Source: Callorhinchus milii
Taxonomy: Eukaryota
Assembly: GCF_018977255.1 (NCBI RefSeq)
Contig: NW_024704753.1
Span: 186,001-250,000 of the forward strand
Direction: 5' to 3'
Length of the DNA stretch: 64,000 nucleotides
Part shown: positions 1 to 13,185 of the stretch, one piece after another
How positions within the stretch are numbered: the stretch's first letter is position 1
Layout: every line of letters starts with the position of its first letter
Notes under the pieces: model-generated
What the model saw: the letters and a program-made list of their open reading frames with translations, nothing else
What the model was told of the DNA's origin: nothing
The model's database searches: none
Translations under genes and position numbers: made by a program

Positions 1-328
1 ACATTTATACAATAACAATTTGGAGTTATATAGCGCCCCTCAGGCAGGGTAGAATCTCACAGGGCCTTTCATATTGGGAGGACATTTTTAAAGATTCATA
101 TGAAGTACCGAAACAAGCCATTCGGCCTATTTGATCTGGCTAGTACTCACACTTCATATGCATAATTATCACAATGGCAAAAATAACATTGTGTGTTGCT
201 GTACATATGTTTTTATGTTTGTGCAAGTGTATGTGTGCACACCCACCTTTGTGTGCATGGATGGGTGGTAGTGGGGGGCTGGGGATGTTGACCACGAAAT
301 GTGAGGTGACAATTGTGTGTGTGATCAG

Positions 329-7274: not shown

Positions 7275-7405
7275 CCGGCCTGTGGGACACTGACCACCGC
7301 TCCCCTCGGCTCCGGCCTGTGGGTCACTGACCACCGCTCCCCTCGGCTCCGGCCTGTGGGACACTGACCACCGCTCCCCTCGGCTCCGGCCTGTGGGTCA
7401 CTGAC
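7275..7405. repeat. 37-bp minisatellite (about 3.5 copies) immediately upstream of the SPCS1 ATG
   Basis: CCGGCCTGTGGG(A/T)CACTGACCACCGCTCCCCTCGGCT repeated. Confidence 0.9.
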
Positions 7406-7716
7406 TGACAATGGCTTCCGCTCGGCGCCTGCGCTGGGACGAGGCCGTATCAAAGCCCCTGTGCTGCGCTGCCCGCACACCGCCTGCACACAGGCCCCTC
7501 TCCCACCGCAACAGCAGATCAGTCAGTAAAGCAATCAACGCGCTGCGCAATAATAAGGGCCTTTGGTGATGTGTGTGTGTGTGTCGGCCTGTGTGGGCGG
7601 GGGCGAGAGACACCGGGAGACCCAGACACACAGGCAGGTGGAGGCCACCCATCCCGTGTGCTGAGGTGGCGGTTAGTGGCCGAGGACCCCAGTAGTTCAG
7701 GTAAACTCCGCAAATC

Positions 7717-8012
7717 ACCGCAACACCGCCCCCCCTCCGCCGCCCCCCCACCGCTCCCCCGCAACACCCGCCCCCCCCACCGCTCCCCCGCAACACCCGC
7801 CCCCCCACCGCTCCCCCGCAACACCCGCCCCCCCCACCGCTCCCACCGCAACCCGCTCCCACCGCAACACCCGCCCCCCCCACCGCTCCCCCGCAACACC
7901 GCCCCCCTCCGCCGCCCCCCCACCCGCAACACCCGCCCCCCCACCGCTCCCCCGCAACACCCGCCCCCCCACCGCTCCCCCGCAACACCCGCCCCCCCCC
8001 CCCCCCCGCTCT
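7717..8012. repeat. C-rich minisatellite (about 30-bp unit)
   Basis: CACCGCTCCCCCGCAACACCCGCCCCCCC repeated. Confidence 0.9.
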
Positions 8013-8173
8013 GCTCCGCTGCACACACACTGCGGCTGATCTCCCGCTAACACTATTGGCGATTCCCTGTGTATAACCGTTATTGCTCAGGACGAGGATT
8101 CTCTCTTCAGAGGAGAAAGATTTTCAAATGTTTGTTTGTTTCATTCTGTAGATTTGGAGCCTGTGAACAAGAC

Positions 8174-11100
8174 ATGTCACTGCGCAAAGGTAAGCGCGGC
8201 CCGAGGTCCTCGCGGGGACCGCGGGGAGACCAGACCGCAGCCGTGGGGAGTCAGTTTTACTGGGAGGAAAGTCTTGGCCGAGACGCGCCACAGTTGATGC
8301 TGACACGTGAAGGGGTGGAAACACCAGCGAATAGTAAACCTGTGGAACAGGCCGTAACGTAGGGAGACGGTGGAAGCGGAAAGTGTTGTTTGTTTCAAGA
8401 ACAAATTATACAGATTTCTGCTGGAAAATAATATCTCGAGTCCTGTAGCTCAGTGGTTAGAGCTCGTCTCGCAAGCGAGAGAGAGACCTGGGTTTGATTC
8501 CCGGCAGGGGGTGAAACCTTGAGCAAGTTTCTTTACTCCACACGCCTGATAATAATCCCTCAAGGAAAAAAATGATAAAATTGGTCACTCAATCCACGAC
8601 TGTTTGTGGAACATTGCTGTGCGCAATTGACTGCCGCATTTCGTCCACAAATATACAATCAATTCACTTTACAGTATCAAAAGCAGAAGTGGCCGGGAAC
8701 ACTCAGCAGGTCAGGCAGCATCTGTGGAGAAAGGAAAGTGAGTCAACGTTACGGGTCCACGACCCTTCGTCAGATACTTCATCAGACTGTTCTGACAAAG
8801 GGTCGTGGATCCGAAATGTTGACTCACTTTCCTTATTCCACAGATGCTGCCTGACCTGCTGAGTGTTCCCAGCCACTTCTGTTTTTGATACTGTAAAGTG
8901 AATTGACTGTCTATTTGTGGGCGAAACGCGGCAGTCAATTGCTTTATAGTTTGGAACACAACATGTCAAGTGACTGTCAGGATAGTGGAAGGCAAACCAG
9001 GTGGACTTTGGTCTTTTGTCTAGCAAATTCTTAAGATTGACCATGCATAACTTTGTCCTGACAGGAAAAAATCAGTTTAAATAAGAAGTGAAATCTACTT
9101 TTTTTTATAATTAAGTCTTTTTTGTTGTTTTCCAGTTAATATCCTGGTAATCCTGCTTGCTGCGATTGTATTTCTGATAGTGTTGCACCACAATCTAATT
9201 GGTGTAAGTGACCTCTTGAGCAAGGAAAGTTCAGGTAAAATGCTTCAGCATTTAATGTCATCTTTTATCTATCCCTACTCAGTGAGCTGTTTGTAATGCT
9301 ACGTGGTAAACAATGTGACCAGACTTGAGCTATGTGTCTAGCTGTGTACATGTGAAATTGCCATTTAAGCAGGCACTTCTCTTCAGGAGAGAGGGAGAAT
9401 AATAGTATTAATAAAAACGTATCTAGAAGACCTAAATGTACCTGCACAGACCCAATGGTCAGAACTCGGGGTGGGGGGTGGTCAGGACAGCTGCTCTTCA
9501 TCACTTGCTGAAAGGTGCTGGTTGTTACTGGGTGAGAACAACAACAACAAAATTACATTTGTATAGCCCTTTCTCGTCGGGAGAATGTCCCAAGGTGCTG
9601 GACAATCAGTGTTTCGGACCCGAGCTAGTGGTCAGAATTGGAGAGGGTATAGGTCAGGGGGCAAGGAAGGTGAACAAAGGCACAGTTGAAGAGAAGGGTC
9701 TTGAGAAGGATCTTGAAGGACACCGGAACCCCTGTACGCCTGTGATTAGTCTGGTAATCTAGTCTAATGATGAAGGTTTTAAGATTAGAGACTAGATTCT
9801 GCCAATCCAGTATAGTACTGGGGGAGTGCTGCTTCCTTCAGATGGCCTGCCATGTACGGTACAATAATGACCAAAGTCCTGTCTGCCTGTTTAGATGAAT
9901 ATTAAAGATCCCGTGGCACTCTTTGAAAAGAGAGTTTCTCCAGGTGTCCTGGCCAACAATCTCTCCAAGTAGAATTTCCTCCATGGCTGTGTGCAAATTG
10001 GCTGCTGCCTGGGCTACAAAATACACATTACACAGTAAAATCTTGTGAAGTGCCTTGACACACCTCCCAGTAACGTGCCAATTTGACATTCACTGTACGC
10101 CTGTGATTTCCCACAGATTCGCTTGGTGGCCTGGGACTGGATAATTTTCACAGCCATGGAGATGATCGAAGCGAGAGAAGTGATGAAGAGATTGCCATTG
10201 TAATGCCGGCTGTGGAGGAGCGGCTGGGAGGTGTGATAGCAGCAATGAACAGTATATATAGTAATAGCAAGTCCAATGTCGTCTTCCATTTAGTCACTAC
10301 AAACACCACTGTTGGCCATTTGAGGTAAATGTCATGTTTATGTGATGTGTAGGCAGACTTGGTTCATGTTCTGCATTGTTTAATTTGACATCAGTATTAA
10401 CCCATTAATAACTTTCTCATTGCTCTAAGATCATGGCTTCAGATAGAAGAGCTGAAGGGGATAAAGTACAAAATTCTTGAGTTCAACACTAGTGTATTGG
10501 ACGGGAAAGTACCGATTGGAGGGGATGAGACAAACCTGAAGCCAGTAAGTACCTGCTTGTCCCATCTGTGACTTGTCAGGGTCTAGTTCACAATTGTCAA
10601 GTATCTAATTGTTTTTTAAATGTCGTATTTGATTCTGCTCAATGACCATTTATGGTGACATGTTTCATGTCCTAATAATGTTGTATTTTATTGCTACAAA
10701 ATCAAATGCTAATTTCCCTTTTCCTTTGATCATGTCTCCTATTCTGCCTCCTTGTTATTTGTAGTTGATGTTTGCAAGGTATTACCTCCCCACCCTGGTG
10801 CCCGGGCTGCAGAAAGCCATCTACCTGGATGATGATGTCATTATACAAGGTAAGCACCAGCCCGGCATCTCCAGGTTGTTTTGACGGTAATGTAAATATT
10901 TTGTTTAAAAATGTCCATGTTTTTTATTAAGAGTTGAGGCTGACTGTATCTATCCCTTCCTGCAGGAGACATCCGTGAGCTTTATGAGACTGAACTGAAG
11001 GTGGGCTATGCTGCAGCCTTTTCTGAAGATTGCGATTCTGTATCTTCCAAGGTGATGGTGAGAGGTGCTGGGAGTCAGGTACTACACTCTTCCGAACCTC

Positions 11101-13185
11101 TTCTGCTGTTGGGAACCTCTACCTTATGTCCTGCATTGGTGGTGGTGGTACTGGGAGGGTAGGGGTTATAATGGAAATGTGATTTAGGGTTTGGCGGACT
11201 TCAGATGAAGGTCAAACATTCGCAGTAAAAATGTGAGTGTTTCCAGTTTCCAGTGGCCAGAATTCACTGTAAACAGTACCCTGAAAGTTTATATTTATCA
11301 TTCACTCTCTCTGCTTCCACTTCTCCCACCTCCTTATGTATATGCTCAAGCATTGTCTGGATTGTAATAGTGTGCTAGCATGGCGCAGTGGTAGCACTCT
11401 CATCTCTTGAGTCCGAAGGCATTCAGATGGACGTTAAAGATCCCATGGCACTGTTCAAAAAGAGAAGGGAGTTTCTCCTGGTGTTTTGACCAACACTTCC
11501 CCAAATAAAACGCTCCATGGCTGTTGTAGGATATTGCTGTGGTCAATTGGCTGACATGTTTCACCCACAAAATACAGTCACTACGTTTTACAGTATATCC
11601 TGTGAAGCGCTTTGAGGTGTCTCGATGATATGTTGAGGCACGATACCAAATGCAGGGATAATTACTAAATGCAGTGTGTGGCATGATGCAGATTCACGTC
11701 TCTGGAGGACAACAACAACAAAATTACATTTATAGAGCGCCTTTCACGTAGGGAGGACGTCTCAAAGTGCTGACAATCAAAAACAGCACCGAGGCCGAGT
11801 CTGTGGTCGGTGATTGGCCAAAGCTCATTGATGCAGAACAGGAATAAGACTAAATAGGAAGAAATGAAGCTCAAACATTTTGTAAATTGCTTTGCTCCAA
11901 ATTTTGTTTTGCAGAACACGTATTTGGGCTTCCTCGATTATAAAAAGGAAACAATCCGAAAACTTGGGATTAAAGCTGGGACGTGCTCCTTCAACCCCGG
12001 TGTGTTTGTAGCTAATCTGACAGAGTGGCGGCAGCAGAACATCACACAGCAGCTGGAAAAGTGGATGGAGATAAATGTGGAGTGAGTGTCGGTTATCACA
12101 TCTTGCTGATGAGAGAATTGTTTGCGATTTGCTTTGCAAGTCTCCTGCAACACCTTGGCTCCAGAAACTGGGCAATTGATAACATTCTGTTGCTATAGCA
12201 ACAGTAAATTGCTTCATAGCTTTAAAGCGGAGGTGGCCAGCAACCACATTGAGTAGGTCACCCTGAAGGGATGGAAGAAATATGTTATTACCTGTTAGCA
12301 AAGCTGAGTTTTCTTGTGGCAGGGAGACTGTATACAATGGAGCCCTGGTGGGCGGAAGTCCCACTCCACCCCTGCTCATTGTGTTCTACAAAAAGCACTC
12401 TTCCATCGCTCCCCTCTGGCACATCAGGCACTTGGGTAAGTTCTAGCTGTTGTGATATTTGGTTTGTACCAACTATTTCCTGGATAACTGGCACTTAGCT
12501 GTATGGCCAGACTATGGTTGCCATCAGCCTACAGTGCTCTGGCTAGTCAACACCTCTGGGAGGTCAGTACCTCCGGGCTGCTCCATGTCTCCCGCCCGAC
12601 CCGCCCTACCATCGACTGGACTTTCAGCCTCTCTGCACCCACACTCTGAAATTCCATCCCACAGTCCCTTGGCCTCGCTTCCTCCCTTGCCTCCTTCAAG
12701 GCTGGTCTCAAGACCCTTCTCTTCCATTTAGTCTTTGGTCTCCCACCTCTCTGCCTTCCCTCACCCCTACACCACCCCTCCCCCATCCTCGGGCCCCGAC
12801 ACCTGACTGTTCAGCGCTTTGGGTTGTCCTCCCAACATGAGAGGTGTTCTATAAATGTCAGTTTGTTGTTGTTGGGGCAGGGCAGCAGCTCTGGTCAAAG
12901 CATTTGACATTTTTTCACAATACTCATCATGCAGTGATGACATGACTAATGTTGATCTGCTAACAGACGTTTTGTTTTGAAGGCTCGAACATTGGAACGC
13001 GATATTCCTCTCACTTTGTTAGAGCTGCCAAGTTGCTGCACTGGAACGGACGATTCAAACCCTGGGGCCGCGTCTCATCCTATGGTGATATTTGGGACAA
13101 ATGGTACGTTCCAGATCCAACGGGAAAATTTCATCCAGTACGACGCCATGCGGAGGACAGCAAAAACCTGGTGTCTAACCAGTGA
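8174..13185 (+). CDS. GLT8D1: Glycosyltransferase 8 domain-containing protein 1 (about 372 aa)
   Basis: Exons 8174-8189 (MSLRK), 9136-9234 (TM, VLHHNL), 10117-10324, 10430-10544, 10765-10849 (YLDDDVI, DxD motif), 10966-11078, 11915-12081 (CSFNPGVFVANLTEW), 12323-12435, 12983-13185 (KLLHWNGRFKPW...WYVPDPTGKF). Total 1119 nt in frame; AATAAA at 14180-14185. Confidence 0.95.
8438..8680 (+). mobile_element. tRNA-derived SINE
   Basis: Head GTCCTGTAGCTCAGTGGTTAGAGC (A box)...GGTTTGATTCCC (B box), followed by a body shared with the minus-strand copy at about 18960-19300. Confidence 0.75.
8624..8941. repeat. Long inverted repeat (arms of about 150 bp, 16-nt loop)
   Basis: 8624-8774 is a near-perfect reverse complement of 8791-8941. 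Confidence 0.95.
12540..12875 (+). mobile_element. Diverged L2 3' fragment
   Basis: TCCTTCAAGGCTGGTCTCAAGACC and a tail ending (TTG)n, matching the other L2 copies. Confidence 0.75.

Follow-up and report, generated by a model that had tools for sequence, protein, structure and literature searches.

The hairpin in the window, which is the whole 64,000-nt stretch of Callorhinchus milii DNA analysed here, is probably made up of two short copies, set head to head, of that end of a Penelope-like element (PLE) which bears the hammerhead. The pair is inserted in an intronic SINE, both ribozyme cores are mutated, and it likely arose at insertion, when both strands of the cut target primed reverse transcription. 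At the level of the family, the identity of the element, a pair of fixed 3' ends (near q100 and q135), target-site duplications (TSDs) and a hot spot of 5' ends at the ribozyme edge are established; family coordinates are written q, q0 being the A of AGTTCTGA. The history of the window copy itself would follow by analogy with the family. The locus itself is debris.

The inverted repeat consists of two arms of 152 nt, 8623-8774 and 8791-8942, which are 92% complementary and separated by a gap of 16 nt. This agrees with the original prediction, from the sequence alone, of a near-perfect fold-back at 8624-8941. The arms differ at 12 positions, none of which is compensated. The region 8600-8965 is predicted to fold with an energy of -280.4 kcal/mol (z = -33.8), and 0 of 100 shuffled sequences were equally stable. 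The whole arms had been taken as the element; this holds for 8678-8774 and 8789-8887 only, the outer 55 nt of each arm being host SINE (Table 1). The proposed intronic location was borne out by spliced contigs (8190-9135) and by matches to Glyco_transf_8 (PF01501) in the host gene, at 10738-10857 and 11918-12082, downstream of the intron. The GT..AG joint is present in contigs of runs X1 and X2, both from one study, and absent from those of X11 and X12. The host gene may be GLT8D1, as originally suggested, or a paralogue. Upstream of its first coding exon, about 3.5 copies of a 37-nt unit stand in tandem at 7275-7405, and 7683-8036 is a C-rich minisatellite.

Table 1. Positions of the features in and around the window hairpin.
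Feature	Position	Strand	Basis or remark
Intron holding the element	8190-9135	+	glycosyltransferase-family-8 gene; GT..AG joint in RNA-type contigs
tRNA-derived host SINE, 5' part	8438-8677	+	tRNA-like head; aligns with further SINE copies
Left arm, tailless pLTR end of PLE	8678-8774	-	q3-q99, projected on family reference
Minimal hammerhead motif, opposite strand	8741-8774	-	sequence; reference differences
Junction spacer, 14 nt	8775-8788	-	resembles re-copied ribozyme start, first ~13 bases (q0-q12)
Right arm, tailless pLTR end of PLE	8789-8887	+	q1-q99, projected on family reference
Minimal hammerhead motif, sense to host pre-mRNA	8789-8824	+	sequence; reference differences; definition in PMC4209133
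Inverted duplicate of left flank 8623-8677 (SINE)	8888-8942	-	replaces tail, TSD and SINE 3' end

The host SINE has a tRNA-like head at 8442-8508 (30.9 bits), and 43 alignments with further SINE copies support it. Its 3' end, which measures about 80 nt in such copies, was not found within 7501-11000. The window copy has no tail, no TSD and none of the cap letters described below, and 55 nt of the SINE are duplicated in inversion. Among the pairs seen, it is the sole clear tailless-tailless pair with a duplicated flank. The arms differ at 4/55 nt in the flank part and at 8/97 nt in the element part. These rates are similar, so that duplication and insertion must be of about the same age.

Insertion into the same abundant tRNA-SINE was repeated at two short sites in 7/96 unselected arms (L109, L118 and L159; L027, L129, L150 and L164), and the window insertion (8663-8677) is at one of these sites. 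Beside family arms there are also tRNA matches of about 50 bits, L213:512-583 and L251:557-619, which are SINE heads or true tRNA genes.

The two opposed hammerhead-like cores that had been quoted are both in the sequence, and the one core lesion described for each arm was confirmed: G8 to A at 8797 and A to T in GAAA at 8751. In the plus core, CTGACAA (8792-8798) is followed by an extra A (8799), stem II (8800-8804/8808-8812) and GAAA (8813-8816), and the predicted cut of the motif is between 8820 and 8821. Compared with the family reference, this core has two further changes, a C to T in stem II (8810), which gives a wobble pair, and a C to T in stem III (8817). The latter, absent from the earlier description, breaks the ACGT palindrome of stem III. 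In the minus core, CTGACGA is at 8773-8767 and GTAA, in place of the GAAA of the reference, at 8752-8749. Both cores are thus broken, in line with the inactive-looking copy that had been proposed; they are predicted to be inactive, and the window copy is likely inert. Only the plus core is carried in sense by the host pre-mRNA, where folding predicts that it is buried within the long hairpin. As each core mirrors the other and lies on the opposite strand, no dimer is possible within one transcript.

The genome of 991 Mb contains 1474 exact matches to a 36-mer from the window arm. In a first look, the candidates numbered 6041 for the window repeat including its SINE flank, and 2043, 543, 139 and 34 on moving upstream. 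Longer copies contain a 3' UTR of 245 nt, the ORF stop lying 245 nt before q0, and upstream of it an ORF with an RT and a putative GIY-YIG part. Majority sequences of this ORF from linked copies contain DKG, YIDD, a C-x4-C-x2-C linker and VYCI..YIGET. On this sequence evidence, with the RT motifs DKG and YIDD present, the family of the window hairpin is a PLE. The Penelope origin originally suggested is borne out, as longer arms run into this ORF. By its CX2-5CxxC-class linker alone, the family would be a Neptune-type PLE; such a linker between RT and EN is named for the Neptune clade (PMC8557442).

Matches of RVT_1 to the RT frames were weak (E 5e-4 and 9e-3, both below the cut-off), and a PDB sequence search with an RT frame gave 0 matches. 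The GIY-YIG-like end VYCI..YIGET, with C/H residues, was recognised by eye; the L085 frame gave no Pfam endonuclease match. L203, which lacks q0-q28, is the only copy whose tail runs into the 5' region of the ORF, and none of the family copies examined was full-length with a pLTR at both ends. A search with PF01541 (GIY-YIG) led to two loci of a second PLE-like family, L053 and L054 (G000:C1:120031410-120034652 and C12:9525870-9529085), which has DKG and the GIY-YIG Pfam match and no similarity to the pLTR of the window family.

The hammerhead of the family is of the minimal type I with an extra A, as the original prediction had it. The core (CUGANGA, GAAA, UH) is intact in the family majority sequence and in 37/80 arms from unselected loci, and the extra A precedes stem II in 80/80. 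Core losses in these arms are mainly at CpG sites, G8 being changed to A in 11 and G12 to A in 21. The first stem-II pair is G-C in 49 arms, G-T in 13 and A-T in 12, and the closing pair of stem I is TG in 61 and TA in 11. The A-T variant of stem II belongs to one subfamily, so that it represents roughly one covariation event. A minority subfamily (L025, L027, L105, L122 and L170) has a different stem-II loop, an A-U first stem-II pair and U-A closing stem I. Stem III of the family is self-complementary (ACGT), and minimal hammerheads with a self-complementary stem III are described for PLEs in PMC4209133. The covariance scan with Rfam models that had been proposed as a check gave no hammerhead match at E<=10, neither in the window nor in 16 family loci.

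To describe the arms, we used an unselected sample of 96, namely the first 100 matches listed for the 36-mer minus 4 second arms of insertions already included. They were chosen without regard to the 5' end, come mostly from contigs C1-C2 and are biased to less diverged copies. Their 3' ends are bimodal, near q100 (tailless arms) and near q135 (tailed arms). An inverted partner was detected by BLAST for 42/96 arms and none for 54/96. Among the 39 pairs with arms at most 300 nt apart, 35 are tailed-tailless, 1 is tailed-tailed, 1 is tailless-tailless and 2 are unclear. A TSD score of at least 9 was obtained for 43/96 arms, compared with 5/96 controls; the other 53/96 have no clear TSD. The TSDs flank the whole palindromic unit. 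In 33/76 typed pairs, the tailless arm extends beyond the tailed one on the 5' side; some loci of this set had been chosen for being palindromic or for their intact core. Rare variants are common to the arms of a pair at 1.24%, against 0.18% after permutation (maximum 0.46% in 1000), and these could also come from conversion between arms. The spacers are distinct in 16/16 cases and contain re-copied bits of the ribozyme start in 7/16, and the arm ends vary independently of each other. No head-to-tail tandem units were found around the 96 arms, and the window holds only two opposed arms.

Three side observations concern these structures. The junctions of L218, L255, L280 and L267 hold short direct re-copies of the first ~10 bases of the RNA, which resemble template realignment by a telomerase-related RT. 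In L042, L120, L219 and L270, the inverted arm is the tail alone (from about q99-108) and abuts a tailless main arm; twin priming on one RNA is expected to give such a product, without overlap. L020 and L022, on a C33 stretch and a C3 stretch, agree in the coordinates of palindrome and flank, which is probably due to duplication or redundant assembly.

The 5' ends are concentrated at the ribozyme edge. Within the 96 arms, q-3..4 holds 36/78 of the starts lying in q-60..48 (p 1e-20), and in a wider set the hot spot holds 61/222. In the pLTR, TTAAAA is at -29 and CCAGTTC spans the 5' edge of the ribozyme; the former is TATA-like and the latter initiator-like. The base before q0 is G in 58/100 of the matches listed, compared with 26% expected, and TG precedes q0 in 38 (a hand count, restricted to matches in which q-2 and q-1 are both not C). 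TTG precedes q0 in 15/60, the first 60 of the matches listed, compared with 1.7 expected. It is found on 7/22 tailed arms and 7/32 tailless arms, 6 arms being untyped. At control ends, G was found in 17/71 and TTG in 4/71, and letters beyond -4 look random. G, TG and TTG mirror additions of +C, +CA and +CAA to a cDNA, which is the pattern of a reverse-transcribed cap. Addition of +CAA on capped RNA is known for MMLV RT (PMC6885630), that is, for an MMLV-type RT and not for a PLE RT, and an extra G from the cap is present in L1 insertions of full length (PMC11702581). Before starts at q1, G occurs in just 39/100 of the matches listed (hand count), which counts against the cap reading. On the whole, from these letters we infer an RNA start site, and a cap, at the ribozyme edge. 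TTG on both arm types, together with the longer 5' reach of many tailless arms, makes each arm look like its own cDNA.

The ribozyme cleavage site was also considered as the main 5' end and rejected, as 2/34 starts outside the hot spot lie at q31-35. A genome-wide search with the q33-start pattern gave 14 matches, of which 6 are true truncations; the control q37 gave 47 matches, 10 being true among 30 examined. Close to the predicted cut, at q30-33, 5' ends are slightly over-represented (15/98, p 0.004 for an interval chosen post hoc). It may reflect cleavage of some templates, with A's added. Self-templating of the TG before q0 from the cDNA mirror of stem I was likewise discarded: it requires G at -3, which is seen in 2/60.

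These features can be accommodated in a model to which we give somewhat better than even chances. A dimeric RT-endonuclease would prime on both strands, at two fixed sites of a capped, mostly uncleaved sense RNA, and copy as far as the cap, with +C, +CA or +CAA added, and the products would be end-joined. The pLTR promoter (TTAAAA, CCAGTTC) would give a capped sense RNA, the first 36 nt of which are the hammerhead. The element protein would nick both target strands about 10-17 nt apart and prime one cDNA at each of two nearby RNA sites. Each cDNA would often pass the uncut ribozyme, run off the capped 5' end and gain +C, +CA or +CAA, and the two cDNA ends would then be joined into a head-to-head pair. 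As to the window copy, the left arm and 55 nt of flank were likely copied onto its right outer end, during insertion or shortly afterwards; this rewriting would have removed the tail, the TSD and the SINE 3' end. If the model is true, two-site priming on capped RNA explains both the inverted pLTR and the one-sided tail, and the ribozyme is placed where cutting removes the mRNA cap.

Self-priming, in which a single cDNA, or an antisense template, would double back and serve as template for its own mirror arm, was proposed for rotifer Penelope (PMC3846280) and would account for the rare variants common to both arms. It seems unlikely for the family, where each pair has one tail, with a TSD, and where the cap-like TTG occurs on both arm types, the additions being on the sense 5' end; moreover, simple fold-back of one cDNA cannot give a tailless arm that is longer at its 5' end. 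The window copy does fit self-priming: its arms are equal and tailless, the flank is inverted, and flank and element have diverged alike, so that fold-back copying may apply in part to this copy. The many palindromes of 200-230 nt, with TSDs around the whole unit, might instead suggest that the palindrome is itself the mobile unit, MITE-like or retrozyme-like, spreading from master hairpins. The original prediction of a palindromic non-autonomous or retrozyme unit was of this kind. It is hardly compatible with spacers that all differ, arm ends that are independent, the 54/96 arms partnerless by BLAST, the lack of head-to-tail tandems around the 96 arms and the continuation of arms into the PLE ORF, and we regard it as very improbable.

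Two other readings concern only a part of the model preferred here, the capped start, or only the hairpin in its intron. The 5' hot spot could arise from stalling of RT at the hammerhead fold, or from splicing at the AG of CCCCAG, taken as an acceptor site. The motif is indeed preceded by a run of pyrimidines and AG, and in Drosophila virilis Penelope an intron end maps to helix I (PMC4209133). The ends, however, lie past the whole fold, which RT has already traversed, and a splice acceptor is at odds with retention of the AG in many copies, with the lack of a common upstream exon, with the random letters beyond -4 and with the absence of TTGAG from 815 nt of upstream majority sequence. This explanation of the hot spot is accordingly judged quite unlikely. 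The very stable 152-bp fold inside a spliced intron might also be thought to serve the host, as an ADAR or Dicer substrate or through an effect on splicing. Its mismatches, uncompensated and including CpG-type decay, and its place as one of many similar inserts make a host function scarcely probable.

Published work already describes the inverted pLTR, the one-sided tail, the TSD and the minimal hammerhead (PMC8557442, PMC3846280, PMC4209133). Insertions of EN+ PLEs (PMC8557442, PMC3846280) resemble those of the family in having TSDs, a single tail for each insertion, a pLTR that is inverted and steeply truncated at its 5' side, and TATA/Inr-like pLTR motifs, the published tail being 30-40 bp. 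The window copy differs from them in that both halves are cut to about 100 nt, without tail or TSD, and in the inverted flank duplicate. PMC3846280 favours self-priming on an antisense template, whereas the family data favour two primings on capped sense RNA. In the literature searched, no account was found of twin priming or cap signatures in PLEs, nor of self-priming Penelope palindromes besides PMC3846280. Metazoan PLE minimal hammerheads (PMC4209133) are alike in CUGANGA, the unpaired base before stem II, GAAA, palindromic 15.2-16.2 and a short stem I. Stem II is 5 bp in the family, compared with 7-8 bp in the Schistosoma examples of that paper, and a minority (12/80) has an A-U first pair. 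That paper also notes opposite-strand hammerhead pairs, at spacings of about 100-700 bp.

A biochemical parallel to the proposed model comes from Anolis Poseidon. The purified PAc protein, predicted to be dimeric, cuts and extends both strands and initiates at two sites, and ribozyme cleavage is not needed (PMC11167929). The likeness lies in the two RT start sites that define the tail, extension of both strands and the dispensable cleavage. The family ORF differs in its Neptune-type cysteine linker, and the covered part of PMC11167929 gives no run-off to the cap and no head-to-head joining. A promoter within the pLTR is described in Drosophila (PMC2377424). Non-LTR retrozymes (bioRxiv 10.64898/2026.07.22.740005) also have a type I hammerhead, related to those of PLE pLTRs; they are head-to-tail tandems, however, and the window element, as a head-to-head pair, is therefore not a retrozyme.

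The family is informative about the origin of inverted ends and a one-sided tail in PLEs. It yields base-precise predictions for the start site, the cap additions and the two priming sites, and suggests that the capped 5' end, and not excision of the template, is where the hammerhead has its role. The two cDNAs of L1 twin priming copy different stretches of the RNA, whereas the cDNAs of the window family overlap and both can reach the 5' end. L1 twin priming is alike in the second priming on the other target strand, the end joining and the extra G of full-length 5' ends (PMC11702581). The family also bears on the choice between a sense and an antisense template, left open by PMC3846280.
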